A stretch of DNA of 63,796 nt, filler included, from Thraustochytrium aureum (Eukaryota), in assembly GCA_012862495.1 (NCBI GenBank). It is 5 parts of 4 records of this genome, joined end to end, with 100 filler letters (N's around TTAATTAATTAA, not from the genome) between each part and the next. Parts side by side here need not be neighbours in the genome. Positions count along the whole stretch, not along the records: positions 25,060 to 43,193 come from BLSG01000191.1; 4 more parts are not named here. The stretch is one strand, 5' to 3'. The notes beneath the pieces are model-generated. The model was given only the letters and a program-made list of their open reading frames with translations. It was not told the DNA's origin and made no database searches. The translations under genes and the position numbers were made by a program. Shown piece by piece: positions 6-47,852 of this stretch; position 1 is the stretch's first letter; each line of letters opens with the position of its first letter.

Positions 6-2843
6 GTGGTTCGGCGCATTGTCAAGACGGGTGGCCAGCCGGTCGAGTACATGCTGGAGACAGGGCGGTTCGATGTCTATGTAGAGCTCCTGCAGCGATC
101 TGGCGAGCTCACGAATGGAATCAAGTCGGAGCTGCTTCAAGAAGTCGGTCTGCTGGTGGAGAACAGCCCTCGCGTTGGGCTTGCGATGGCAGAGGGCGGT
201 GCCTGCCGCCAACTGCAGGTCGTTGTTTCCTCCTGCGAGACTGCCGCCGAGCTGTGCAACGCAACGCGGGCGATGGCTTGCTTTGTTGAGCACAGCTCGC
301 CAACTGGATGCAAGATCACCGACCTCGCGCTCAAGGAGCGCTGCGACGAGTGCCTTATCGACGTGCTCTGCAGGAAGCGCGACTCGGGACCGATGGCCCT
401 CGAAGTCCTGCTGAACACCGTGGGGGCTCTCGGCTACATGGTCAAGCGCCAGAGCGATCGAATCGAAACCGCGAGCGCGGATGGCGGCATCGCAAGCCCC
501 GAGCTGGGCGAGAGTACGCCAGATAGTGCCAGTAGCCAAGTTGCGGGAACTGCAGCGTGCCTGGTCTCCTGCGGGGCGAAATCGTGCAAGTACGAACGTG
601 CGAGCGTCGCTCTGACGGAGCTTCTTGGAGCCCAAGGAATCGGAGAGAGCCTGACCTGGAATTCGCTCTGGGCCCTGATCTACTTGATGAACGGCGCAAG
701 CGGGGAACAATGCACGCACGCCGTGTCTCGGGCGGGCGGTCTTGAGGTTTTGCACGGCATCGTAGAGTCGAACGCGCAGAACCAGCCCCTGGTCTGTTCG
801 GCGAGCAAGGCGCTCTGGCACATTGTGCAGCACACAGACGTGGAGGCGATTACAAAACTTCCCCTTGACGTCCGACTCAAGATTATCGCCTGCGCAACCC
901 GATCGAGGCCGGCCGCGGCCGCCTCTGCGACTGGAAGCGGCCCGCAGAGCGAAGAGACACCAAATCCGTTTGGAACCCTGGACGTCACGATAGACCCCAG
1001 TGATGTGGCGAAAAGCTCGCTCGAGGTTTTGGGCAAGATTTCCGGCGACCAGCTCCGGAGCAACGCCCTGAAAATTCAGTATGCTTCGAATGAGGTCGAG
1101 CAGGCAGGCGTGGATGCAGGCGGCGTTCGCCGCGACTGGCTGTCGCGCCTCAGCGAGGCCATCTTCGATCCAAAGAACAACCTCGTAATAGCGGGCTTCC
1201 ATCCGAACGACAGCGTCCAGATCAGTCCTGCACCTTCGTTTGGGGGCATCACGGAGCAAGAGCAGGCGGCCTGGTACCGTCTTATGGGCCGGGTGCTGGC
1301 CCTGTCGGTTCTGTATGAGGACCCTCTCGGCGTGGCGCTCGTGCCGAGCTTGTGCAAGCTGGTCCTTGAGGAGGACCCCGAGTTTGACGATATCAAGCAC
1401 GTTTCGAACGACTATTTTCGGACCTTTTCCCGGCTCAAGGAGCTGCGCGACAAGGATCGGGTTGCCTTTGAGAATTCCCTTCGCGATCTCACGTTCACGG
1501 TGAACAGCCGCGAGTGCATGATGGCGGAAGCGTCGGAGCGAACTGCGGGCGCCCGTACCGACGGCACCAATGCCCTGGCACCACCGCTGCCAATCGTGGA
1601 CGAGGGGGGCGCAGGGGCTGAGGACGAGGCGAACGACAATGAGAACGAGCTCAACGACTTCACAGACGCATCTAGTGCTTGGGATTGGGCTGACGGTGGC
1701 TCTTCGCCTGGTGGGTCAATGTGCATGCCACCGCCTCCTAGGCGGCGCGGGGGCGCGTCGTCGTCTTCGCTGAGCTGCGTTACAGCATTGGCTGCTGCTG
1801 CGCCGGTTGCTTGCACTTCGTCGACTTCGTCCTCTTCTTCTTCTTCCACGAGCCCTGCAGGTTCGGTCGGTCGCGCCGCCACTCGTCCGCAACTTGACGT
1901 AGCTGTGCCGCTGCGTCAAGCTTCTCTTGCTGCTGAAGCTAGTGTGCCAGCACACCCACCGTCGCCAGCAGTGAGCGCGGAGCGGCAGGCGGAGGTGGAG
2001 GCGATCGCGGTGAGCCTGTCCACGCTCAAGCAAGTTGCTCGGCGGCTGGACAAGGCTCGCGCGAACGGTGACCGTGCGTTAATCCGCCGCCTGTTGATGC
2101 GCCAGAACGAAATGCTCCAGGACAAGCCAGTCCTTGAGGAGGCAGGAGCTGGCGGGGAGTGGCCTGACGAGGGCCTTGCGCCAGGGATGCGCAAGCGCCG
2201 CCTGAGCACGGCGAGCTCCAGCAGCGAGCACGAAAGCGCGATGAAGCGGCTGCAGACTGGCGCAGCTAAAATGCGGCGCATGATGAGCGACCTCATGGAC
2301 GGTGGGCAGACGGAGCGCATACTTCCGGGCAACTTTGATCAATACCTAGAAATGCTCACGTTCAAGTTGCTCGTGGAGAATGTAGCATCGCAGGTGGCCA
2401 TGCTCAAGGAGGGCTTCCACGAGGTCCTCCCACGGGACATCATTTTGCGACTTGTCACGAGCGCCGAGCTCGGCAAGTTGGTAGAAGGCGACCGCACGAT
2501 CAACATTTCTATGTGGAAGAAGAACACGGTGGTCAAAGGCGGGAGCGAGCAAGACACGCCACAGATTGGCTGGTTTTGGGAGTATGCCGAGCGCCTGTCG
2601 AGGCCCGACCGCCAGCGGCTGTTGATGTGGGCAACGGGATGGCGCTCTATTGGCAGCAGCGGCTTTGCGAACCGGTCTTTTACGATCGAGGTGACCAAGG
2701 TTGTGAATGACGCGGAGAACGAGCGGCTGCCGAGCGTCGCCACTTGTGGGTTTCACTTGTGGATCCCCAAGTACAAGACGCGCGAGCAGCTCGAGAAGAA
2801 ATTTGAGCTGGCAATGTCGGAGACTAGCTTCGGCAATTGCTAG
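6..2843 (+). CDS. HECT-type E3 ubiquitin ligase with N-terminal armadillo-like helical repeats (5' end outside window)
   Basis: HECT N-lobe motif 'GVDAGGVRRDWLSRLSEAIFDP' and 'YRLMGRVLALSV...LGVALVPSLCKLVL'. C-lobe 'IGWFWEYAERLSRPDRQRLLMWATG' and 'LPSVATCGFHLWIPKYKTREQLEKKFELAM..SFG' with the catalytic Cys. ORF is open at the window start. Confidence 0.93.
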   Translation: MVRRIVKTGGQPVEYMLETGRFDVYVELLQRSGELTNGIKSELLQEVGLLVENSPRVGLAMAEGGACRQLQVVVSSCETAAELCNATRAMACFVEHSSPTGCKITDLALKERCDECLIDVLCRKRDSGPMALEVLLNTVGALGYMVKRQSDRIETASADGGIASPELGESTPDSASSQVAGTAACLVSCGAKSCKYERASVALTELLGAQGIGESLTWNSLWALIYLMNGASGEQCTHAVSRAGGLEVLHGIVESNAQNQPLVCSASKALWHIVQHTDVEAITKLPLDVRLKIIACATRSRPAAAASATGSGPQSEETPNPFGTLDVTIDPSDVAKSSLEVLGKISGDQLRSNALKIQYASNEVEQAGVDAGGVRRDWLSRLSEAIFDPKNNLVIAGFHPNDSVQISPAPSFGGITEQEQAAWYRLMGRVLALSVLYEDPLGVALVPSLCKLVLEEDPEFDDIKHVSNDYFRTFSRLKELRDKDRVAFENSLRDLTFTVNSRECMMAEASERTAGARTDGTNALAPPLPIVDEGGAGAEDEANDNENELNDFTDASSAWDWADGGSSPGGSMCMPPPPRRRGGASSSSLSCVTALAAAAPVACTSSTSSSSSSSTSPAGSVGRAATRPQLDVAVPLRQASLAAEASVPAHPPSPAVSAERQAEVEAIAVSLSTLKQVARRLDKARANGDRALIRRLLMRQNEMLQDKPVLEEAGAGGEWPDEGLAPGMRKRRLSTASSSSEHESAMKRLQTGAAKMRRMMSDLMDGGQTERILPGNFDQYLEMLTFKLLVENVASQVAMLKEGFHEVLPRDIILRLVTSAELGKLVEGDRTINISMWKKNTVVKGGSEQDTPQIGWFWEYAERLSRPDRQRLLMWATGWRSIGSSGFANRSFTIEVTKVVNDAENERLPSVATCGFHLWIPKYKTREQLEKKFELAMSETSFGNC

Positions 2844-2939
2844 CTCTAGCTCTCCAGAGAGAGAGCCACTCATCCATGGGGTTTGGCTGGGGCGGACGCC
2901 CTTTTCCTTGCTTTGGTTGTGGAGCGGCAGTGCGGAGAG

Positions 2940-3000
2940 CCCCCCCCTCCCCCCGCGGCATGGTTTCCCCCCGCGACATGGTTTCCCCCCACGGCATGGT
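2940..3000 (+). repeat. Short tandem repeat, ~20-bp unit (ccccgcggcatggtttcccc) x3, downstream of the HECT gene
   Basis: Three near-identical copies of 'cggcatggtttcccccc' seen directly. Confidence 0.7.
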
Positions 3001-3249
3001 CTAGTAAAGTTGCATTGTATCTGACTGAGATTCTGAACTGAATGTTTGACTGAGATTCTGAACTGATAGTCCGATTGGGAATCTCGCGGAGGTGTTTGGT
3101 CCTTTCGTGCGAGTCAAGGCAACGAGTCTGCGAGCGAGCAATCGTCCAACTGCAGTGTCGGGGCGGTGCAATGCCTTTGCTGTACTTTGTTCTTGCGCGC
3201 TGGTCATGGTTGAGCCACGTCACGGTGCGGGTTGCGCTCTCATGATTCC

Positions 3250-6200
3250 TTAGACATCGTGCTTGGACGCAACGCCGCCAGTTCTGCTCTCGACGCTGTC
3301 GCTCTGCTCGCGCTGGATCATCAGCTCGCCCTCCTCTTGCTCATCGACTACAGGCGCGAAAGGGACGCCAAGCTTCGAGTGAAGGACACGGGTTGCGTCC
3401 TCCCACGTCACAGGGGGAACGAACGGCGGGAAGACGCGCAGTACCAGAAAGCTAATCCCCGCATAGTTGTCCATCGTGTAGAGCATTGCAAACGCGCACA
3501 GGAGGACCGCCAAGCCATATGCCGGGTTCTGGGCGATGCCCCCGCCAGCGCCCTTGGCGGCCGTGGCGCTGTTTCGCGGAGGGTGCACCGCAGGTGGCTT
3601 GTCGATGTTGATCGCATTGAGCAAGAGCTGCGCAGGGAGATTGTACGTGCTTNNNNNNNNNNNNNNNNNNNNNNNNNNNNNNNNNNNNNNNNNNNNNNNN
3701 NNNNNNNNNNNNNNNNNNNNNNNNNNNNNNNNNNNNNNNNNNNNNNNNNNNNNNNNNNNNNNNNNNNNNNNNNNNNNNNNNNNNNNNNNNNNNNNNNNNN
3801 NNNNNNNNNNNNNNNNNNNNNNNNNNNNNNNNNNNNNNNNNNNNNNNNNNNNNNNNNNNNNNNNNNNNNNNNNNNNNNNNNNNNNNNNNNNNNNNNNNNN
3901 NNNNNNNNNNNNNNNNNNNNNNNNNNNNNNGATTGTACGTGCTTGAATCATACCGCACCCCGTGATTGCGTGATCCTTGCGCGCAGAGGTGAGAGCAGCG
4001 AGGTCGATAACGAATGCGCACTTTTTGGCAATTTTGGACTGCAGCAATGCGGCACGCATAGCAGAAGCGGTCGCGTTGTTGACCTTGCCGTTGCCGAAGG
4101 CGTACGAGTCAGTGACTTTGCCATCCACAACGGACCCCGGAAGCACGAGCAGGCAGGAGGTTTCCCCGAGCGGAGCAGCAAGCGCATCCCAGGCAGCGGT
4201 AAACTCGGCAGGCGTCATCGTCGCCGCATCGTGAAGCCACGCGCCAAGCACAAGCACATCGGCCTCGAGGAGTTTGCTGCCCGGCTGGAGCTGCTTTTGG
4301 AGCGCAGTGACTGAAGGCACGTAGCTGTAGGAGACCGTGCCAGGCGGGAGGCCGGTCGCGCCGGGCATCGCCACGGAGATCTCCTCAACAAAGTCTGCCT
4401 GGAACTCGCCCACGATGAGGTGCCCCGCTTCGGGAGCCATGACTGTGTGCGTGGCCGTGGCGAGCTCGTAGACATTCTCGTCCCCCACGAACGCGAAATG
4501 CCGCTTGGCCACGAGATTTGCGGCAAGTTCGGTTGGTATCAGCTTGTATTTGCAGGCCTTCTCCGCTAGGTGGTTGCGCCACACCCACGTATCGGCGATG
4601 CAGGCCGGGCCGTCGTGGCGCGAGCACGCCCGGGACGAGACGTCGATCCAAGCTCCGTCGCTCAAGTTGTCGAGGCACGCTCTCTTCGAGAAGACTGCGA
4701 GGTGCGGACGAAGGGGGCCACCGTTGATGGGCGCGCCTACAGGGACCCATGCAGGAAGGAGGAGCAGGCCGACCGCCGCGGACGCCAGCCCAACGGCGCA
4801 CGCTGAATAGCTGAGCGCCCACCTAGAAGTAGAAGTAACTGTCGACGCAGGCGCTTCGTTGCACACCTGCGGCTCGTTCGAAGCGATGGCCCTTTCGAGG
4901 ACCGCGATCGCTGCCGCCCCCACGAGCACGATCGCGACGATGACAAGCGGCCAGCCAGCACCCATAATCTGAAGAAACCAGGCCAGGAGCCCAGCGGAAC
5001 CGAGAATGAGACCCTGGACGGCGAGAAAGTTCATCGCGCGAAAAGGGTCCTCGGGCACGAGCATGGCCCGCGTGAACATGGTAACGCGGTACAGTCGCCG
5101 GGCAACCGTAAAATAGATTGCGGTGACGACGACGAGGTTGATCTTGGGGTATCCAGGGACCAGCACGAGCACAGTCTTGGCGTTTGAGGTGAGCCAGACA
5201 TGGTGCTGCATGAGGTATGTCTCTAGGGTGTACTTGCCGATCGTGGCGAGAACGCCAAGGTGGACCTGGCGGAGCCAGGGCGTAATGTTGCGAAAGTAGA
5301 TGTAGGTCAGGAGCGGGATCATAAACGTGTACGGGTTGACCTGGTTGAACTGGAGCTTGGGGAGCGGGAAGATTTCTGTCGCCCACCACCAGGCGGCGAT
5401 GAGGAGCGCCGCGCCAACGGTGGACTTGACGGCGGTTTGCTGCGGCCAAGGCAAGGCTTCGACCTTTGCGATCCACAGCATCGCTTGGGGAAAGTTCAGA
5501 GCAAAGATCATGCCAAAAAACGTAGAGTAGTGGTCCAGACCGCTCCGGAAGTGCCACTCGTACTTGATCCCGTACGCCCCAACCGCGGCCCCCGGGTGCG
5601 GTTCGTTGGGCATGAAGGCGAAGACGACATCAAATATAGCGCCAAACTCCCAAACCGCGAAAATGATGACGCCGACGGTGGCGAGCTTGATGCGCATGGG
5701 CCACTTGGTGTGGTTTACATGGCGCGCGACGCGCATGGTGGCGAACACGACCAAAAAGTAGAAGGTGTGCAGCGGGCAGATGTAGTAGAGCATGTACATG
5801 TTGTTCATGACCAGGCACAAGAACAGCACGGTGAAGTTGAGCCGCCACATCATCTGCGCGAACCGCACGAAGCCATAGTCGCGCTTGATGTAGAAAAAGC
5901 TGAGGTTGCCGAACCCGGTCATCCACACGTAGCACGAAATCATGACGCGAACGGCGTTGTAGACCTCAGACGAGTGCATGTAGTGGTATAGCAGGAATAC
6001 GGTCTGCATCCAGCCCTTCCACTCCTCCGTTTGGTCGCGATTGATCAGGTCGGTGCTCTTTGGGTCGTGCTCGATCGATCCGAACGCGAACATGAGCACC
6101 ATCAGGCAGATGAACCAGAAAAAGTCGGGCACGTGATCCTTTTGCTCGTGCGGGAAAATGGGCGCGTTCTCGCTTATCCACGTGTAAGCCAGGATGGCGC

Positions 6201-35170: not shown

Positions 35171-36364
35171 NNNNNNNNNNNNNNNNNNNNNNNNNNNNNN
35201 NNNNNNNNNNNNNNNNNNNNNNNNNNNNNNNNNNNNNNNNNNNNNNNNNNNNNNNNNNNNNNNNNNNNNNNNNNNNNNNNNNNNNNNNNNNNNNNNNNNN
35301 NNNNNNNNNNNNNNNNNNNNNNNNNNNNNNNNNNNNNNNNNNNNNNNNNNNNNNNNNNNNNNNNNNNNNNNNNNNNNNNNNNNNNNNNNNNNNNNNNNNN
35401 NNNNNNNNNNNNNNNNNNNNNNNNNNNNNNNNNNNNNNNNNNNNNNNNNNNNNNNNNNNNNNNNNNNNNNNNNNNNNNNNNNNNNNNNNNNNNNNNNNNN
35501 NNNNNNNNNNNNNNNNNNNNNNNNNNNNNNNNNNNNNNNNNNNNNNNNNNNNNNNNNNNNNNNNNNNNNNNNNNNNNNNNNNNNNNNNNNNNNNNNNNNN
35601 NNNNNNNNNNNNNNNNNNNNNNNNNNNNNNNNNNNNNNNNNNNNNNNNNNNNNNNNNGCCGCTCCTGCTGCTGCTGCTGCTCCTGCTGTGCTGCTCCGGC
35701 TGCTCCTGCTCGATTCGGGTCTGGCGGGCGGTTTTCCTGTCTTCGTTGTTGTACTCGTTGTAGTTGGTGGAGGAGCACTCGAGTGCTCAACGAGGTCTCT
35801 CCGAGGCATCCAGCGTGATGTCGAGCGGGATGCCTGGCTGGCTTGCCTGGTGAAGCAGCGCTCGCGCTCTGCTGCGCTACGGCTCTGCAGGTCGCGAGAT
35901 CCACGCGGGCTGGGCATTGAAGGCTCTGGCGGCGCTTGGGCGGTGCAGGAAGGATGATGTAGGTTGGGCGAACTTGTCGCCGATTCAGCGGTGGGCGCTC
36001 TACTCGGCTTGTTGGACGCGTTTGCTCGCTGCAATGCGGGCCGCGAACTCTGCGCGACCAGAGCCCCGCATTCTGCTGCGCCTGGCGCTGTCCAGAGCGC
36101 TCGAAGACAGCTCCTATTGGCGAGAGAACGAGCTCGGTGTGGGCACCCATCGCTTCGCGCCGCAGGAGCTGCCAATGGCAGCCTGGCCCCGAGCCATTCT
36201 CTCAAGGCTGCGCAACGCAGCGGCTGCGCAACGCGGCGGCTGCAGATGGCTTGACGAATGGCGCTCGGCGCATTGCTTTCCGTGCACCGCGAACAACTCG
36301 ACTCGAATGTGTTCGTGTTTCGTTTTTGGGGTTTTGTTGGGCCCGTTGGCCAGATGCGTGAAGG

Positions 36365-37726
36365 ATGGCCAGGTCGTGGGACACCAGGGCGCGCCGCGGC
36401 TGCATGCGGGGCCGGTGGAAAGCACCGCTGGCCATTGCGCTCGGCGCGCTTTGGCTCGTGCTGCACTGGCGGGCCCTGCCAGAGCCAACGTCGGCGGCGC
36501 GCATTCGCGCCCTTTCGCAGCAATCGCGGGCTGCGCCAGCGTTGACCGAGGCGCGGGCTGCCGAGGCTACAGAGCGCGCGCGCTCGGAGGCCCTCGGGGC
36601 TACAGGGCGAGCGCGCTCGGAGGCCCTCGGGGCAATGCCGAATTACTTTGCAGGGTTTTCGCCCGAGGAGGCCCCGCCCCCTCGAGGGCTCGATATGGCA
36701 GCGCTGGCGATGTGTCGCGCCGCCAAGGGTGGGCCCCTGGTCGAGAACCGCCTTTCTGAGTGTGAGGATGGCGCCTGCTTGAAGTGCGTCGAGCCAAACC
36801 ACCTGGCGCAAGTCAAGCCGCTCCTAGAGGGCTTCTGGGACCGCCAGCTCGCCGCCAAGCGAAAGCACGCGCTCCAGTCCTGGTTCGATGCCGGCTCGCT
36901 CGTTCACGTCGTCGCAGTTGACGAAAACATCGTGCACATGGTCCTCAACTGGGCCTGCGCAGCCGACCGGGCGCGGGAAGGGTCAGCGCGGCGCCTGCTC
37001 GTCGTGACCTCCTCGCTGGAGGTCGTCGACTTGGTGCGCCGCGCCGGCCTCCGGGTTTTGGACCCGGCAGACCTCTTCGCGGCCGGGGCTAGCTTTCCAG
37101 AGAAGACAAAAGGGTTCAAGTGGGCCATGTCCAACCTGATCCGGACCGCTGCCGAGCTCGTTTATTTAGGCTACGACGTCTTGCTCCAGGACGCAGATGT
37201 GGTGTGGCTCAAGGACGCAGAGGCCGCCTTGTCCGCGCACGTAGAGTCGCGGAACTTGGACATGGCCTTCCAGACTGCGGCTCGCTTTGACGCCCAAGGC
37301 CCCGCAAACAGTGGCGTGGTGATGGTCCGGAGTAACCCCAAAACGCGCTTGTTCATGCTCTGCATGCTCAACGCCCTGGCCCTGGTTTACCACATGCAAG
37401 ACGACCAGCGCCTCTGGAACCACATGCTACGGCACTATTTGTTTTCGCAGCTCCACTGGGAGACACTCCCTGCCGACCTCGTGCTGGGAATCAAGTCCTC
37501 TCTGCAAAAGTGGTCGCGCAAGCGCGTGCAAGCCGAAGACCCAGTGATTGTGCACCGCGTCGGCAACCAAAACAAGCGCGCCACCAACAAGGCGCTCGAC
37601 ATGCGCGAGCTCGGCCTCTGGTTCTTCGACGAGACCTGCCGCCTGGTCAAGCCGAGCGCCTTCCCATCCGCGACCTTCGAGGCTGAAGTTGGTGCTATTT
37701 GGCGCAGCGCCTCCGCTGGAGTCTAG
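36365..37726 (+). CDS. Nucleotide-diphospho-sugar transferase (GT77-like), type II membrane glycosyltransferase
   Basis: N-terminal signal anchor, 'MVLNWAC', DxD motif 'GYDVLLQDADVVWLKD', 'ANSGVVMVRSN..T', 'DDQRLWN'. Confidence 0.85.
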   Translation: MARSWDTRARRGCMRGRWKAPLAIALGALWLVLHWRALPEPTSAARIRALSQQSRAAPALTEARAAEATERARSEALGATGRARSEALGAMPNYFAGFSPEEAPPPRGLDMAALAMCRAAKGGPLVENRLSECEDGACLKCVEPNHLAQVKPLLEGFWDRQLAAKRKHALQSWFDAGSLVHVVAVDENIVHMVLNWACAADRAREGSARRLLVVTSSLEVVDLVRRAGLRVLDPADLFAAGASFPEKTKGFKWAMSNLIRTAAELVYLGYDVLLQDADVVWLKDAEAALSAHVESRNLDMAFQTAARFDAQGPANSGVVMVRSNPKTRLFMLCMLNALALVYHMQDDQRLWNHMLRHYLFSQLHWETLPADLVLGIKSSLQKWSRKRVQAEDPVIVHRVGNQNKRATNKALDMRELGLWFFDETCRLVKPSAFPSATFEAEVGAIWRSASAGV

Positions 37727-38507
37727 CTTCTTGAGCCTTCCCATTTAGAACGCCAGTTTCATCATTCTGCAAGCGCGGCAAGAGACCTAGTCAGGCAAAC
37801 CTAAAGCCTCGGATGCGCACAGAGCCACAGAGAACCACTGCCCGCTCGCCGCGCTCTGGAGGCGAACGCGCTGGCCTGAATCGGGGCGCCGGAGCCACAA
37901 CGGCCCGTCGAGTTGGACCGTATCAGCGTCGATTCGCTTGANNNNNNNNNNNNNNNNNNNNNNNNNNNNNNNNNNNNNNNNNNNNNNNNNNNNNNNNNNN
38001 NNNNNNNNNNNNNNNNNNNNNNNNNNNNNNNNNNNNNNNNNNNNNNNNNNNNNNNNNNNNNNNNNNNNNNNNNNNNNNNNNNNNNNNNNNNNNNNNNNNN
38101 NNNNNNNNNNNNNNNNNNNNNNNNNNNNNNNNNNNNNNNNNNNNNNNNNNNNNNNNNNNNNNNNNNNNNNNNNNNNNNNNNNNNNNNNNNNNNNNNNNNN
38201 NNNNNNNNNNNNNNNNNNNNNNNNNNNNNNNNNNNNNNNNNNNNNNNNNNNNNNNNNNNNNNNNNNNNNNNNNNNNNNNNNNNNNNNNNNNNNNNNNNNN
38301 NNNNNNNNNNNNNNNNNNNNNNNNNNNNNNNNNNNNNNNNNNNNNNNNNNNNNNNNNNNNNNNNNNNNNNNNNNNNNNNNNNNNNNNNNNNNNNNNNNNN
38401 NNNNNNNNNNNNNNNNNNNNNNNNNNNNNNNNNNNNNNNNNNNNNNNNNNNNCGCATTGCGCAAACTGCGAATCAGATCAGAATCGGGCCGCGCTGAGGC
38501 GCACGCA

Positions 38508-39756
38508 ATGGCGGGTGCGGGAGCCTCGGCGCACGCGCTTGCGCTGGGCGCGGCTGGGCTCTGCGCGGCGCTGACGGTCTTGGTCTCCGCGCGGCTGATC
38601 TCGCAGCATGTGCGACACTGGACCAAACCGGTGATTCAGCGCAAGATCGTGGGGATCTTGTACCTGGCGCCCGTTTACGCAGCCGCGAGCTTCCTCTCGC
38701 TGGCCTTCAAGGGCCTCGCTGTGTACCTCGACCTGTTTCGCGACTGCTATGAAGCATACTCGATCTGGCTTTTCCTGGCGCTCTGCGTGGCGCTCTTGAA
38801 CGACGGCGACGAGTTTCGCGTCCTCGAGCTCATGGAGGGTCGGCCTCCCGTGCGCCACCCGTGGCCGTTTGACCGCGTCTGGGCCCCGGAGCCGCTGGGG
38901 CCCCCGTTTCTGAGACGCGCCAAGCTAGCGACGATGCAGTTTGTCGTGGCCAAGCCGCTGCTGGCGATATTTGCGGCGGCCATGGAGGCGCTCGACGGCT
39001 ACGACCAGGGCAACTTTCGCGTGGATCGGGCGTACGCCTACGTGGCGCTTGCGCAGAACGTCTCGGTGACTTGGGCCTTCTACTGGCTTTTGCTGTTCTA
39101 CGCTGCCTTCAAGGGGGACCTCGCCCCGCACAACCCGCTGCCCAAGTTTGTCGCGATCAAGGCTGTTCTGTTTTTGTCGTTCTGGCAGGGCCTCGTTATC
39201 GCTGTGCTCGCCAAGATGCACGTCATCTCGGCCGCAGGGACCTGGTCGGTAGAGCAAGTCGCCAACGGCGCGCAAAACTTCCTCTTGTGCGTGGAGATGC
39301 TCGCGGCAGCGCTGGCGCACCACTATGCCTTCAGCTACAAACCCTTCATCGCCGGAGCGGAGGGCGAGGTGGATGACGACGAGCCGACCGGGACGGGCCC
39401 CGGGCGCCGGGATCCGCCTCGGCCTTCTCGCCCGCCCGCGCCTGCGAGACCAGCTCGCTGTCGACGACGCGGTTAACGATTTGAACGACGTTCTGCCCGG
39501 CCGCATGCTCGTCCCGTCGCGGTTCCGGCCAGGGGCTGCGAGGGTAGTAGAGCGGGTGGGTCCGGGCGGGGGCACCGCCTACTCAGCAGAGAGGACGGCG
39601 GCGCAACCTTCCAGCATGCCTCGTCAACAGACAGACCCGGACGGGCTAGGCGTGTTGCGACGCGGGCGGATCCTTTCCGGCGCCGACCTTGCCCAGTACT
39701 TGGACCAAAACTCCGAGGCCCCCGAGCTGCGCGATGGCGGCCTGGGCCTTGTCTGA
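38508..39756 (+). CDS. TMEM184/OSTalpha (Solute_trans_a, LAZ1-like) membrane protein; frameshift near 39395
   Basis: 'HWTKPVIQRKIVGIL..PVYA..SFLSL', 'RDCYEAY', 'H.WPF', 'MQFVVAKP', 'PKFVAIKAVLFLSFWQG', 'QNFLLCVEM..AALAHHYAF'. The tail continues in ORF 39325-39756. Confidence 0.92.
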
Positions 39757-39982: not shown

Positions 39983-42900
39983 TCAAGCCGAACGGCGCTG
40001 CAAAGAGTCGCGCAGGCGTCGGAAGAGCGCTGCTGGAAGAGCTGCGACCTCCGCAGCGAGAGCCACCGCGAACACGGCCAGGGTATGCAGCAGCGTGCGC
40101 ATGCCGACGTACGGCGCGTTTGAGGGCTTGAGCTTGTACTCGCACCCCTTGCGGAGCATGAGGATGCCCGCGTGCAGGTGGATGTAGAGCACGACGCTAA
40201 ACGTCATAAGGGGCTGGAACACGAGGCAAGCAAGCTGCGACTCGACGCGCTCAAGCACCAGGCTCGCCGAAAAGGTTGGCGCACCGTCGTCAGCGACATC
40301 CTCGGGCGCTCTCGCGGTTGGCTGCGCGCCGGTAACGTGCTCCCACTCGGTCATCGTTGCCGCTTCGGCCGCGGCTTTGGGGCGGCGCGTGCTGAGCGCT
40401 TTGACGGCGAGGCGGCCACCCACCGGGCGCGTAAGCCTCCACTCGTAGTTGAAGAATACGTCGAAGAAAGGGCTCACGTGAAAGTCCTTCTTCCACTTGG
40501 AGGCGTACCAGTCCAGGCCGTCCGCCGCGAGCTCGCGCTTTGCGTCGTCGAAGAACGGCAGCACGTAGAGCCGCTTCTCAAGCCAGGGCGTGTTGCTCAC
40601 CTCGAGAAGGACGGCCTCGAGGCGCGTCCTGTCCGGCGAGAGGCAGTAGAACACGCTGACTGGGTTGAAGACGAACCCGAAGCAGCGCAGGTTGGTGAGC
40701 ACCTGCACCGGTCCGCTGGGCTCGCGGCCGCAGTCCTCCCGAATAGCCTTGCGAACGGCGTCATCGAGGGGCTCGGATGGGTCCCCAAAGTGGTCTTCTC
40801 GCCGCCAGGAAAAGGGCGCCCAGTCGGACGGTTTGGCGGAGACCAACCAGCTGTCGCTGAACNNNNNNNNNNNNNNNNNNNNNNNNNNNNNNNNNNNNNN
40901 NNNNNNNNNNNNNNNNNNNNNNNNNNNNNNNNNNNNNNNNNNNNNNNNNNNNNNNNNNNNNNNNNNNNNNNNNNNNNNNNNNNNNNNNNNNNNNNNNNNN
41001 NNNNNNNNNNNNNNNNNNNNNNNNNNNNNNNNNNNNNNNNNNNNNNNNNNNNNNNNNNNNNNNNNNNNNNNNNNNNNNNNNNNNNNNNNNNNNNNNNNNN
41101 NNNNNNNNNNNNNNNNNNNNNNNNNNNNNNNNNNNNNNNNNNNNNNNNNNNNNNACGGTTTGGCGGAGACCAACCAGCTGTCGCTGAACGCTGTGCCTGC
41201 GCGGACCTCGGCCAAGTCTATGAGCGCCATCCAGACGGGATAGCTGAATGCATGCGAAGACGGCGAGGCACCCTCCACCTTGTTGCGGCGGTGGGCCACC
41301 GTGCCGCGGTACAGGCGCGAGTCTGCGAGCAAAGTCAGCGCGGAAGTGAGCGGCAAGCGCTACGCCAAGTGCCAAAGCCAGTAGCAAAAAAAAACAGAGA
41401 GCTGAGGTGGGCAAATGATTCACGTACGCAATGGGGCCGCCAGCGGGTTCGCGCTGGCCGCAGCGGGGCTCGCTGTGCCGCCCATGGTTTCGATGAGCTC
41501 CGCCTTGGTGCGCGCCTTGCTCAGGAGCTGGTCGGTGTTGACGCGGTTTTCACGCTCCTCCTTGTACCTCACCGCGGTGCTGATCAGAAGCGCCGTCTCG
41601 CGCACCGCGATCGCGCAAATGGGCAGAAGGACGCGCCACGGCGCCTTGAGGATGACCGGATAGAGGAGAATCGGGACAGGGATCCACCGGATCACCACCA
41701 GAGCCAGCAGGTCGAGCTTCCAGAGCAGCGCGTAGCCAGTGTGCCCCAATGTGTAGCCACGGAGGCTGAGCATGGTGCGGAGGCTGCGGAAACAAGCATG
41801 GAGCTCGCTCACGCCGTGCACGATGGCGAGGCCGAGCGCTGTTGTGGCCGTCTTGGTGTCCCCCGGCGAAGGACAGCACGCTCAGAGTCAGGAGGGCGAG
41901 CGAGTGCAACCCGTTCAGGAGCGACCTGTGCAGCAGAAAGCGGGACACCGAGGCCCACGCAAGCACCGCAACGACAAAGTGCATCGGGGAGCGGATGTAG
42001 TACTTTGTTGCGAGGTCCGGCAGCGACGCCGAGGCAGCTGCGGCTTCGCTCTGAACTCGCGCAGAGCCCTCAGCAGAGCAGGCGCCCGTTTCGCTGCCCC
42101 ACTGGCAAAAGTGCACGTCGTCGCCCCCGGCGACCGAGGCCGACGCGTTGATTCCGGACTCGGCACCAATCGCACCTCCCACCGAGGCATCGGCCTGGTC
42201 CCAGGGAGTCGCATTCGCAAGTTGAGTGGTGTACAGCACGTCATGGAACGCGATGAGGCCCAACACGACCGCGCACACGAACACGGAGACGCAGAGCTTG
42301 ACGAAAACGAGCTGCGCTCGTCGGCGTGCACGCGTCGAGACCGTCGCGGTGGCGGGGTCGAGTTTCGGCAGGTATGTGGCGATGAGCGTTGCGAAGATCA
42401 CCGCGGCGCACAGGATTGTAGCGATGTGCCTGATCACGGTGTGCAGGGTGAGCGACATGACGGCGACCCACGACATGACGGCTACAATCGCCGGAAGCAC
42501 GACGGTGTCAAACGACTGCAGCCACAGCGGGACGTCCTCCTCGAGGCCGGCCCCCTCTCCAGAGGCGACAGAGGCAGCAGCGGCAGCAGCCCGCCTGGCG
42601 CCCTTGGCCTGAAGGTCGGCTGTGTCGCGCAGCTTGCTGACGAAAGTGAGGTGGTAGTCGAGGATGTACTTTTGGCGGAAGCCCGACTCGCAGTAGGCAA
42701 AGTACATCTCGAAGACGCGAAACCACGACTCGGGGTAGCCGAGGGCGAGAATCTTCTCCTTGTTGGCCAGGAAGCGCTCGCGCCACATGCGCAGCGTGAT
42801 GGCGTAGTCGGGACCGATGTCGACGACCTCCGCGAGGTCGAGCGCAGTCTCCTCTGTGGCCCATTTGACAGCGCTGAGGGAGGGCAGGTGGCCGCCAGGG

Positions 42901-43193
42901 AAGATGCATTCGCGGATAAAGTCCGAGGTGGAGCAGTATTCGTCGTACCGGTCATCGTGAATCGAGATCACCTGGATCACGGCCCGGCCCCCGGGCTTGA
43001 GCATCCGCTCGACCGTCTCAAAGTACTCTGGGAGGTGCTTGTGGCCGACGGCTTCAAGCATCTCGATGGAAACCACCTTGTCGAAGCAGCCAGGCGCGAG
43101 GTCGTGCTCAAAGACGATCTGGTCCTTGAGCTCGTTGTACTGCTCGATGCCCATCTTGCGATAGTCGCAGATGATGAGGTTGACTTTGTCCTC
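39983..43193 (-). CDS. Fusion gene: cyclopropane-fatty-acyl-phospholipid-synthase-like SAM methyltransferase - multi-TM (TLC-like) domain - DUF1365; 5' truncated by linker; intron 41323-41427; frameshift ~41860
   Basis: CMAS motifs 'DYR', 'FDKVVSIEMLEAVG', 'DFIRECIFPGGHLPSL', 'IGPDYAITLRMWRERF', 'MYFAYCESGF'. A TM region follows. DUF1365 motifs 'LYRGTVAHRR...HAFSYPV', 'LTNLRCFGFVFNPVSVFYC', 'EVSNTPWLE', 'KDFHVSPF'. A GT-AG intron joins them in frame. Confidence 0.85.
41323..41427 (-). other. Spliceosomal intron (105 bp) joining the TM region to DUF1365
   Basis: Donor GTACGT, U-rich body, branch-like GCTGAC, acceptor ...TTGCTCGCAG. Splicing gives in-frame ...A-P-L-H-S-R-L-Y-R-G. Confidence 0.8.
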
Positions 43194-44134
43194 NNNNNNN
43201 NNNNNNNNNNNNNNNNNNNNNNNNNNNNNNNNNNNNNTTAATTAATTAANNNNNNNNNNNNNNNNNNNNNNNNNNNNNNNNNNNNNNNNNNNNGGCCTCC
43301 ACGCCCAGCCCCCCACACAGCCCGCGCAGAGGGGCCGGCTCGATGCCTCACAAAAGGCGTCGCGTGCACACCGTCGCTCTCTCAAAGGGGTAGTGAGGGC
43401 GGCGGCAGTCTTGACTGTCGGGACTGCCTCCGGGTGGAGTGAAAACCAGGTTTACTCTCTCAAGCGTCATGCACACCATTGCGAGAGGGACGGAGAGGAG
43501 GAGAGGGAAAGGAATATGTTTTTGGGGCCTCTGTGGGGAGGCGCGTTGGCTCGTGCTTTGTTTTGGGAGACGGTGTTTTGGGGGAGCGGCCAGGGCGTTT
43601 TGGGGCAGCCAGGGCGTTTTGGGGCGTTTGATAAGTTTTTTTGTTAGATTTGTCGGTTTTTGTCAAGTGGTTTTTACTTCTGCTTGTAATTACCTAAACT
43701 GTTGTTTTTTTGTGTTTTTTTTTGGTTGTAAAAGAAAATAGGTTTTTAGAAGTGTTATTTTTAGATGAAAGGTTTTTTTTTTTTTTTTGGTTGGACAACT
43801 TGAAGCTGTTTGTGGCCTGTGTAGACAGACTCTACGTGCAGCATACAGCACACGCATTCGCTCCATGCGCGCAAGCAGGGGAGGCGGGCATTGCACGTGG
43901 AGCGCGCAAAGGCGGCGGGGAGGCAGAGACGCTAAGGGCCGCGGGAGGGCGGCGCGACAGGCCGTGAGGGCAGGCCGGCTGCTGCGTTGCGCGACAGGGC
44001 GGGCGCCCGGCTGGGGTGGCTCGGCGTCGACCGTCGCTCGGTCTCTCTCGGTCGCTCGGTCGCTCGGTCGCGCGCTGGGGTCTCGCTCGAGCGTGGTCGA
44101 TCCGGTGGTCGGTCGGGGCGCCCGGGCCGGGACG

Positions 44135-46111
44135 ATGGCGGGGACGGATGAGCGAGAGTACTTGTCGCCGATTCAGCTCGGCAGGCTGCTGCCGGTGATA
44201 CCGTCGGTGCTGGCGCTGCTGCGCGAGCACAACCCGATGGCCGCCGACCTCTTCCTGGACGGCGAGGAGGTCGACCGCAAGACAATCAACTACGTGATGA
44301 GCGACCTGCTGAACACGCTCAACTTCAACGGCGACCTGACCATGATGGAACTCCGGTTCAGCTTTGCCAGCTACAAGATCCCCGTCTGGCTCGGCCTCGT
44401 GCGCGAGGTCCTCACCGGGAGCTGGCCGCGCGTGGTCCCCGACCGCGTGGCCAGCGAGCTCCTGGGATCGCTGAACGCGCTGAGCGACGCCCAGTCCCCC
44501 ATCGAGTGCGCCTATGTCCTGGGCCCCTGCTTGGACAGGATCCCGCGCAACCGGTACCGCGTGCTGGCCGAGTTTTGCTCCTTCCTCCGCGACACCTCCT
44601 CGTCGCCAGAAGACATGGCGTGCCTGACAGGCCCCTTTCTGCTCTGCCCAAGCACCACGCTGACTACGCAGGGCACTTCGCTAATCGCGAGCCAGACGGC
44701 CGCCTCGGCGGCAATCATGGACATGCTGATCCAGGAGAGCGAGATGCTCTTTGGGCGGCACGCGGTCAAGACGCCCCTCGGGTACCCGCTGGGCATGCGC
44801 CCCACGCAGACCAAGCCGGACGGCCACCGGCGGTCGCTGAGCGGGCAAATGTTCAAGCGGCTCTCGTTCGGGAAAAAGGCCGCCCACCGCCGCCGGGCCT
44901 CGGGGCTCCGCCAGGCCTGGCGCCCAAGACGGGCCGCAAGGCGCCGCCGCCGCCGCCACGCGCCAAGAACGGCGCCACGAGCGTAGCCGATGGGCGCCCC
45001 GGCCGTCAGCAGCAAGACGATGACGCTACAGGAGAAGCGCAAGCTCGGGCTGCGCGTGTTTTACCAGTGGCGGGACCCGCGCCGCGCGGACCGCGTCGAG
45101 CTGCTCTTCAGCAACTACGACTTTGAGGAGATCGCGCTGGCGATCCAGCGCAAGTACTACATGTTGCCGCCTGGCTGGAAGGAGCAGCTCGAGTACATGC
45201 TCTTCACGGGCAACCGCAACCTGGGCTGGTTTGCGCGCCTCAAGCAGGGCATCCTGCCAGCCCCGGTCGAGCAGGACATGGGCCACATGGGCGGGCCCGA
45301 CTCGGCGCCTCAGGAGGAGACCAAGATCGACAAGATCATCAACGAAATCGCCGACACGGAGCAAAAGTTCAACAAGATGCTCTCTGACCTCATGGGCCTC
45401 TACGTGAACAAGGTCAAGTCCATCGCGGACGGGAGCCAGGGCCAGGCCGCCGCCAAGGCGCTGGGCCTCACGACGCAGCAGGTCGACCACATCTTTGGCC
45501 AGCGCCTGTCCCGCGTCGTGGAGGTCAGCAACTCGCTGCTCAGCGACCTCGAGGTCGTCACCCTGGTGCGCGTCCAGCCAAAGTCGGGCAAGAGCAGGAT
45601 CGAGCTCGTCTCGCGCGTCTTCTTGGAAAACAGCCAGCAGCTCTACGTGTTTAGCCCCTTTGCCTGCGCGCACAAGACAGCGGTCACCTTCCTCCGCCAG
45701 GCGCGCGAGTCGCTTGGCGAGGGGGCCCAGAGCGGCGGCGGCGGCGCTCTGCGCCGCCTCGGCTCGCTGCTTGGGAGCGAGACGCAAAAGAACTACCTGC
45801 AGATCTGGAGCGAGATCTCGCAGCAGAGCGACCTGCTTCGCGGCCAGACGCTCGAGTCGATCCTCATCATGCCCATTCAGCGCGTGCCGCGCTACAGGCT
45901 GCTGCTCGGCGAGCTGCAAAAGGCAACTCCCAAGACGGACTCGTGCTACACGCAGCTGGCCGAGGTGGTTGAGATTATCAAGGGCCTCAACACGGACATT
46001 AACGAGGCTATCCGGGCGCACGAGCGCCTCATGAAAAAATTCGGCGATGAGCTCACGGCCCCCCAAGCCAGTAAAACGGGTAATAAGGGCGGGGTGCGCA
46101 ACGTCTATTGA
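44135..46111 (+). CDS. RhoGAP-like domain - proline-rich linker - RhoGEF (DH) domain protein; two compensating frameshifts (~44878, ~44992)
   Basis: DH domain 'KIINEIADTEQKFNKML...LESILIMPIQRVPRYRLLLGELQKATP...INEAIR'. The upstream helical domain 'LDRIPRNRYRVLAEFCSFL...MACLTGPFLL' resembles the RhoGAP C-terminal helices. A PPPP linker lies in the alternative frame. Confidence 0.7.
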
Positions 46112-46558: not shown

Positions 46559-47852
46559 TCAGTCTGGCCCTTGCGGATTCTGAGCTGCGCCTGTCTGGTC
46601 TGCAAACGTCTCCTCGCACATCAACAGACTCATGTGGGTATCGTCCTCCAGTTCGCCGAACGCGGTCGACTCAAAGCTGCGCTTGAGCGTGTCAGCGGCG
46701 GGGGCGCCGGGGGCCGTGTCAAGAGCCCCCTTCGCAAGACCCTCGGACGTCCAGTCGGCGGGGCGCGACTGAAAGACGGAGAGCCAGCGTTGAGTCGACA
46801 GCTTTGGCTCCAGGTCAGGGCGCTGTTCGATGGCGACGTCATAGCCAAACGCCTCAAAGTCCTCGTAGTACATCTCGAGCACCATGTCCATGGTGTCCTG
46901 GGTGTAAAACTCGTGCCAGCGCTTGCCGCCTGATGCGCCAGAGGAGAGCCGCCCGTTCGTTGTGGCGAGGCCGCGCAGTGCCGCCAGCACCTTTGCTGGG
47001 AGAAAGGCGTAGTGGTCCTTGTACAAGGGCGAGCCGATCGCCCCGTCGGCCCCGAGGGCGCGCATGTCCTCTTGCCGGATCACGTTGGGCACGTACTGGC
47101 GACCCTTGTGGTGCGTGTACGCGTGCATGGGCAGCACGTGGCAGTACACGTCATGGTCCTCTGTGCTCCCCTTCTCGCGGAACCGCTGCCACTTGGCATA
47201 CCACTCGCGCGTAAAGTGCTCAAAGCTCTCGCACGATCCAAACCGGTTGTAGTGGTAAATCGAGACGAATCGCGAGTAGGGGTTGCGCACGATGGCAAAG
47301 CTATCGTCCATGTCGCGCGGCTGCACCAGGCCGTGCCGCAGCATCCTCTCCGCCGTAAAGTGCATCAGCCACCCCGAGTAGGAGACGCCGTGCAGGTAGT
47401 CGAAAGAGCTTCCGAACTCGCACATCACCCGCCCGAAAACAAACATCATGAACCGGCGCAGCCAGTCGTGCCGCCCCATTTGCGCATTCATCACAAACGT
47501 CGACATGAGGAATGTCAGCAAACCTGTCGCCCACAGGTAGATCGACCCTGGTGGCGGGCACGCCCTGCAGACGCCCCAGTCGGGCCGCAGGGCCCATATC
47601 GCAAACGCAGTCCCCACGGCGAGGACGGCGTACAAGTTCTCAATAGGTCACCACAGGAAAGTTGGCATTTTCCAGCAGCTTGTACCGGTAAAAAAAGTAC
47701 CACAGCCCGCACTTGTGGTAGCACCCCCGTCCGGCGCGGCTCTTGCGCTCGACGTCAAACCGCTTCACCAAGCTCGTGCCACCGCACCTCGGCACGTGCA
47801 CGAACAGCAAGTTGGTCTCCGGCGCCGCGCGGTCCTTCACAAGCCAGGGCAT
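46559..47852 (-). CDS. Sulfotransferase family 2 (carbohydrate sulfotransferase-like); frameshift ~47642
   Basis: 5'-PSB 'LLFVHVPRCGGTS', 3'-PB 'FAIVRNPYSRFVSIY', C-terminal 'W.EFYT..T...V..MYYEDFEAFGY'. Confidence 0.85.

Follow-up and report, generated by a model that had tools for sequence, protein, structure and literature searches.

Here we describe the last 926 codons of a spliced, thraustochytrid-type gene of Thraustochytrium aureum in which a CMAS methyltransferase, a membrane domain and a DUF1365 domain are fused, which likely has a FAD desaturase at its start, and which, with a probability that we put at roughly 60%, makes methyl-furan fatty acids on membrane lipids. Encoded on the minus strand where one scaffold ends, the gene is truncated at position 43193 of the window, by which we mean the whole stretch of 63,796 nt that was analysed, several scaffolds strung together with TTAATTAATTAA linkers between them. 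For convenience, we refer to the FAD oxidoreductase (UfaD type) as D, to the CMAS methyltransferase (UfaM) as M and to DUF1365 (UfaO) as O.

Furan fatty acids are potent membrane antioxidants that occur in fish and algae, and thraustochytrids are cultured industrially for DHA oil. If our reading is true, thraustochytrids count among the organisms that bring furan acids into marine food webs, and the gene is a one-gene cassette for omega-3 oils that resist oxidation; with all three steps in a single gene, the question can be tested by one knockout or expression construct. The domain parts, the bacterial pathway, the plant D-M fusions and the bacterial O-M fusions are known already, and the four-part D-M-TLC-O protein, TLC denoting the predicted TRAM-LAG1-CLN8 type of the membrane domain, is new. 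Eukaryotic furan fatty acid enzymes have so far been described as proposed by homology (PMC13247531, PMC8491031). In the literature searched (abstracts and passages, mostly of freely available papers), the fusion is not described, furan fatty acids are not reported from thraustochytrids, and no eukaryotic enzyme is shown to carry out the furan fatty acid pathway.

Methyltransferase, membrane and DUF1365 domains in one spliced gene

Three breaks separate the ORFs of the gene, and each can be resolved: a surplus G, an intron and a false N gap. The features, in the order in which the gene is read, are the following.

43194..43293, no strand: scaffold end and artificial linker, with another scaffold's DNA beyond
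42663..43193, minus: CMAS, C-terminal half of a CFA/UfaM-type SAM methyltransferase whose 5′ part is lost; Pfam PF02353 (E 2.2e-35), residues 35-177 of ORF 43193-41859
41522..42533, minus: membrane domain, predicted to be of degenerate TLC type, about 8 helices; no Pfam match, call from the predicted fold
41912-41895, 41818-41798 and 41719-41678, minus: conserved membrane-domain residues (His, SELH and D..R.P, respectively)
41860..41864, minus: run of five G with one surplus base, absent from X1 and X2 contigs; homologs in frame throughout
41323..41427, minus: phase-1 GT-AG intron of 105 nt (GTACGT...GCAG) joining the TLC part to DUF1365; spliced and retained in X2 contigs
41422-41420, minus: in-frame TGA, intron nucleotides 6-8 (sequence)
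41339-41334, minus: branch-like GCTGAC in the same intron (sequence)
41155..41322, minus: start of exon 2, N-terminal DUF1365 (UfaO-type); PF07103 profile positions 1-41 (E 1.7e-6), in ORF 41320-41156
40863..41154, no strand: false N gap; flanks overlap by 35 identical bases and the Pfam profile passes from position 41 to 40 across it
40124..40827, minus: remaining DUF1365 (UfaO-type oxygenase domain); PF07103 profile positions 40-233 (E 1.2e-41), in ORF 40861-39986
39983..40099, minus: C-terminal hydrophobic helix (hydropathy) and stop (TGA 39985-39983)

The contigs of both sequencing runs that cover base 41860 (X1 and X2; X3 and X5 have no coverage there) are one base shorter at this point, so the surplus G, in a run for which the sequence-only reading had proposed a one-base correction, is an assembly error, and a genuine frameshift or pseudogene is ruled out. 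The N gap, on which that reading had not remarked, is false because the same 35 bases stand on either side of it. The 105-nt intron was confirmed by one X2 contig that skips exactly 41427-41323 (at a depth of 5.9 and with a shorter flank of 30 nt), while another keeps it (depth 4.7); the exon junction across which a check of transcripts had been proposed is thus seen both joined and unspliced. X2 was treated as RNA because the splice is visible in it, X1 is possibly DNA, and no run is recorded as RNA.

After these three corrections the frame stays open for 925 residues and a stop, and the protein can be aligned over its whole length with P0001, a protein from an Aplanochytrium transcript (residues 717-1586, 38% identity, E 7e-173). 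With the frame continuous and the splice present in an X2 contig, the fusion of three ORFs into a single gene, postulated from the DNA alone, is real. Three protein searches returned no near-identical full-length protein; the best identity was 78%, a value that P0004 reaches over the CMAS stretch 42663..43193. The hydrophobic helix at the C-terminus is shared with P0001, P0063, P0066 and a metagenome locus (L001; see below).

Of 40 DUF1365 columns that a set of 40 bacterial-type sequences has in common, 30 are identical here. One His that is invariant in those 40 sequences is nonetheless Arg in all five thraustochytrid-type ones. The predicted model of the domain (pLDDT 82) is a beta-barrel for which the best structural match reached only Z 6.3, none being clear, so no mechanism can be derived from it.

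Relatives and the missing 5′ end

A search for DUF1365 in longer proteins (7998 candidates scored) gave three matches: P0001, a complete transcript ORF of 1586 aa in a cluster (P0001/P0057) with a member named Aplanochytrium stocchinoi; P0002, the 1526-aa protein GBG24148.1 of Hondaea fermentalgiana; and P0003, an unrelated D-O fusion. Pfam finds a FAD oxidoreductase, CMAS, the membrane part and DUF1365 in both P0001 and P0002, and two further proteins that came to light through the clusters, P0063 (1627 aa, from an MMETSP0958 transcript) and P0066 (1586 aa), align with them throughout. At L001, D-M-TM is followed by a 53-nt intron and then by DUF1365. The family (1526-1627 aa, some members from transcripts) therefore unites UfaD-, UfaM- and UfaO-type domains, and its named members are Thraustochytriidae or close to them. 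A profile of the membrane part matched nine representatives among 1.84 billion, eight of thraustochytrid type and one TLC fragment; with only nine matches, the architecture looks confined, within the searches made, to thraustochytrid-type sequences.

The suggestion that the lost 5′ end may carry a FAD oxidoreductase holds for the relatives, as this domain is N-terminal in all seven closest full-length ones and in L001. The window gene itself likely starts with a FAD desaturase as they do. Its 5′ part is absent from the whole window by tblastn with three full-length homologs, and one X2 contig (record 16, 1994 nt, 581 of them on the window) extends 1413 nt, or 471 codons, beyond the scaffold end; assuming collinearity, it would reach about residue 274 of P0004, in which Amino_oxidase spans residues 27-354.

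A predicted TLC fold in the membrane domain

Of the three Pfam domains singled out by the sequence-only reading, CMAS (PF02353) and DUF1365 (PF07103) were matched and TLC (PF03798) stayed below threshold, in the window pieces as in the thraustochytrid-type relatives. Its impression of TLC-like features is nevertheless supported by two other lines of evidence. An AlphaFold2 model of the membrane part of the L001 homolog (pLDDT 80.7, from 9 sequences) best matches ceramide synthase 6 (CerS6; Z 15.9, rmsd 3.3 Å, 214 residues aligned), and the top 12 matches are CerS/Lac1, TMEM120 and ELOVL7, unrelated proteins appearing from Z 7.5 down. Foldseek E-values for the same model are only 0.67-1.4, with the highest probabilities going to the same proteins. 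Furthermore, the family profile matches the TLC fragment P0149 (E 1.2e-5 among 1.84 billion), which itself carries PF03798 (E 3e-8) and is linked to the family by hhalign at 95%. The call of a TLC fold, which is a prediction, rests on these matches and not on the tails of algal proteins: an HMM of the thraustochytrid membrane part scored them at best at E 0.015, with no separation from local shuffled controls (0.024), and hhalign gave only 54-58%.

The membrane domain retains one His together with Glu, Asp and Arg residues at conserved positions. It thus resembles the TLC acyltransferases CerS6, Lac1, TLCD1 and CLN8 in predicted fold and in this core, but differs from them in sharing 8-9% identity, in falling under the Pfam threshold, and in having a single His where P0149 has an HH pair. 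TLCD1 and CLN8 have been described as lysophospholipid acyltransferases that work through a His acyl intermediate (PMC11838012).

Origin of the fusion

Comparison with other loci speaks against the earlier proposal of an operon collapsed directly into one polypeptide. In 72 of the 77 prokaryote genome loci closest to the window DUF1365, the three genes are separate ORFs in the order D|O|M, whereas the thraustochytrid order is D-M-TLC-O; among 80 metagenome loci, 44 have a single D-M ORF without O in the flanks at hand and 22 have D|O|M. The methyltransferase tree (51 sequences, midpoint root, 11 intended sequences dropped as their core motif was not found; built without plant, Rhodobacter or fungal C9-methyltransferase sequences) also argues against it, as M falls within a clade of eukaryotic D-M proteins: the long sequences of D-M type share one branch (100/100, two short unnamed sequences included), in which the thraustochytrid-type branch (100/98) stands beside green algae and haptophytes, and M as a whole groups with the algal D-M proteins near bacterial-type M genes.

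The FAD oxidoreductase-CMAS-TLC proteins of green algae and haptophytes (1100-1600 aa) are sister in this tree and have the same D-M-TLC order, the layout of the unspliced short form of the thraustochytrid gene (see below); they differ by the lack of DUF1365 among the Pfam domains listed and by a less diverged TLC domain. Many algal D-M proteins have the Pfam TLC domain at the equivalent place, and the fusion hints at a role for it. Most likely, then, UfaO was added later, via the intron, behind an older eukaryotic (algal-type) D-M-TLC protein, that is, the older gene would have been spliced onto a downstream UfaO gene. Fusions of DUF1365 with CMAS are common in bacteria (about 660 aa; P0103 and others) and likewise hold UfaO- and UfaM-type domains in one chain, but in the reverse order O-M and without a FAD or membrane domain.

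Likely role in furan fatty acid synthesis

The pathway of Rhodobacter and Rhodopseudomonas palustris starts from phospholipid-bound cis-vaccenate, which UfaM methylates; UfaD then forms the diene, UfaO inserts oxygen from O2 and FufM puts on a second methyl (PMC7380195). The same source confirms that UfaO is a DUF1365 protein, as the sequence-only reading had it. The three domain types of the window family are those required there for 9M5-FuFA (PMC7380195). The Rhodobacter (Cereibacter) sphaeroides and R. palustris enzymes thus share CMAS, DUF1365 and, in the relatives, the FAD oxidoreductase with the window family, but they are separate proteins encoded D|O|M without TLC, whereas the thraustochytrid ones form a single D-M-TLC-O polypeptide with an intron in its gene.

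By analogy with Rhodobacter, M would methylate a cis-monounsaturated acyl chain with SAM, D would then form a methylated conjugated diene, and DUF1365 would insert oxygen from O2 and close the furan ring. The putative TLC-like domain would tether the three enzymes to the membrane, and it may also shift acyl chains between lipids. A separate FufM-like methylase may supply the second methyl, as FufM does in the bacterial pathway. At L001, the one relative with such a neighbour, a coclaurine-N-methyltransferase-like gene stands head-to-head about 200 bp away (best PDB match coclaurine N-methyltransferase, E 1.7e-64), and 17 of 156 other loci, most of them bacterial, have homologs of it (41-48% identity) in their flanks. 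FufM (RPA0924) and LIME1 (AT4G33110) presumably belong to the same coclaurine-N-methyltransferase-like family, and we read the L001 gene as probably FufM-like.

Comparable sets of genes are known from other eukaryotes. In Chlamydomonas, singlet oxygen switches on CFA1, CFA2 (labelled coclaurine N-methyltransferase) and a DUF1365 gene together (PMC4067076). Arabidopsis has a UfaD-UfaM fusion, AtUFAMD1 (AT3G23510), a DUF1365 protein, AtUFAO1 (AT1G30130), and FUFM1/LIME1, for which furan-acid synthesis has been proposed (PMC10940516, PMC13247531, PMC12712439), and its D-M and UfaO proteins both locate to lipid droplets (PMC10940516). Unlike in the window fusion, UfaO is a separate gene in Arabidopsis, and a 2026 review still calls the function 'putative'.

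The same methylating, desaturating and oxygenating chemistry might instead act on another chain (C16, odd-chain, PUFA or a sphingoid base) and yield a furan-like or oxygenated lipid unlike the bacterial products. We regard this as improbable, though it has several points in its favor: the TLC fold is common to ceramide synthases, the invariant His of DUF1365 has become Arg, and the NCBI name of the Hondaea protein is 'Sphingolipid C9-methyltransferase', although this name is automatic, as is the other database name of the four-part protein, 'Amine oxidase domain-containing protein'. Moreover, some thraustochytrids lack cis-vaccenic acid, the bacterial substrate: A. limacinum SR21 is reported to be without it (PMC8390409), and P0063 probably comes from that species, so the substrate may differ. 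Against another chain, M does not stand apart in the tree, which was built without fungal C9-methyltransferases, but sits with the D-M proteins of algae and the M genes of bacterial operons, and phospholipids are also substrates of TLC proteins (PMC11838012).

The main rival to furan synthesis is an activity of the plant cyclopropane (or cyclopropene) synthase type, in which the ring comes from M while D and DUF1365 either modify it or play an accessory part; it appears unlikely. The cotton and Sterculia synthases, like the relatives of the window gene, fuse an N-terminal FAD oxidase to a CFA-type methyltransferase; their demonstrated product is a cyclopropane fatty acid, and no DUF1365 is described for them in the passages available (PMC3132707). 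Cotton GhCPS1 and GhCPS2, which have this oxidase-plus-methyltransferase layout and are, in the literature consulted, the eukaryotic D-M fusions with an assayed product, give cyclopropane acids in yeast and plants, but GhCPS3 and an Agrobacterium operon pair yielded none (PMC3132707). In both NCBIfam and the PDB, M comes closest to CFA synthases, yet all matches lie under the cut-offs, the full-length relatives scoring 189-229 bits against 400-650 (NF008686, NF053839 and NF040703, all prokaryotic models). M also has Gln in place of a His found in the two solved CFA synthases compared, 5Z9O and 7QOS. We take this His to be the bicarbonate ligand site. Of 61 long proteins, 5 could not be scored and the other 56 have Gln at the position, as do 43 of 76 operon M genes (33 not scored, none with His). 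Finally, a cyclopropane product leaves both the fusion to UfaO and the head-to-head FufM-like gene of L001 unexplained, and furan synthesis remains the reading that we prefer.

A stop codon at the start of the joining intron

The first bases of this intron are GTACGTGA in the window and GTAAGTGA in L001, with an in-frame stop at nucleotides 6-8 in both, and its position and phase appear to be the same in the relatives. Among 13 thraustochytrid-type sequences that end near the junction and are 25-66% identical near the end, nine finish with R, S or C, then T or K, then the stop, which is the pattern of such a donor; four of the nine were judged from the protein end alone. In the window, the stop-making pair comes next at 2 of 18 donor-like GTA(A/C)GT sites. 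If the chance of an intron stop is 0.25, nine of 13 corresponds to a p of about 0.001, a figure weakened by shared ancestry and unknown donor preferences.

The stop would let unspliced RNA still encode a short D-M-TLC form. It may be left over from the end of the ancestral gene, act as a guard through nonsense-mediated decay (the window intron being 3n in length) or serve as a switch. The most elaborate version of our preferred reading, a one-protein furan synthase with a built-in TLC acyltransferase in which this stop serves as the switch, so that the short form ends at the methylated diene and the long one carries on to the antioxidant furan, under oxidative stress for instance, is a speculation that we consider doubtful.

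From one side of the intron to the other, the depth of X2 contigs drops from 24 to 11, a difference that we set aside because contigs cannot show levels or ends. Very improbable is that the short D-M-TLC protein is the main product and the four-domain form a minor read-through: the intron stops in nine of 13 relatives, the intron-retaining X2 contig and short, unspliced forms derived from transcripts in three clusters (P0058, P0062 and P0065) are in its favor, but exon 2 of the window gene has no in-frame start before the first DUF1365 strand and three relatives have spliced full-length forms. Another intron, which lies within DUF1365, seems to be retained as well (P0008 and P0060), so retention may be ordinary in these assemblies.

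Genes beside the fusion genes

At metagenome locus L001, a coclaurine-N-methyltransferase-like gene (805-1921, minus strand) lies head-to-head with the homologous fusion gene, with ~200 bp separating the two starts. It is probably of the FufM/LIME type; FufM, the Rhodopseudomonas palustris methylase adding the second methyl of furan fatty acids, and its Arabidopsis counterpart LIME1 are presumably members of the coclaurine-N-methyltransferase-like family. The genes near the fusion gene in the window are ordinary, and gene order across the TTAATTAATTAA linkers has no meaning.

Neighbouring genes and joins in the window
36362-37726, plus strand, nucleotide-diphospho-sugar transferase
38474-39476, plus strand, Ost-alpha/TMEM184 transporter
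44987-46111, plus strand, RhoGEF (scaffold after that of the fusion gene)
46559-47647, minus strand, sulfotransferase (same following scaffold)
25004, 43238, 59343 and 62284, TTAATTAATTAA linkers within N runs, artificial scaffold joins

Other fusion layouts and database records

Another metagenome locus, L002, carries an AT-rich ORF of 1246 codons (24-3764) encoding FAD oxidoreductase, CMAS methyltransferase and membrane part, whose tail shares the NTDxL end motif but which stops without a DUF1365 part. A further fusion type, P0003 (726 aa), joins FAD oxidoreductase to DUF1365 without a methyltransferase. Five oxidoreductase-methyltransferase proteins of 1390-1600 aa (P0012, P0074, P0093, P0098 and P0099) bear a C-terminal TLC domain, separated from CMAS by 375-500 residues without domain assignment; in the methyltransferase tree, two of them, P0012 and P0093, fall together with Emiliania.

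The Hondaea relative P0002 (GBG24148.1), named sphingolipid C9-methyltransferase in the database, lacks the N-terminal half of DUF1365 in its gene model, which is probably mis-spliced. TAXON_ID 87120 on P0063, the 1627-aa transcript relative, points to a fungus and is probably a typo; 87102 is Aurantiochytrium limacinum.
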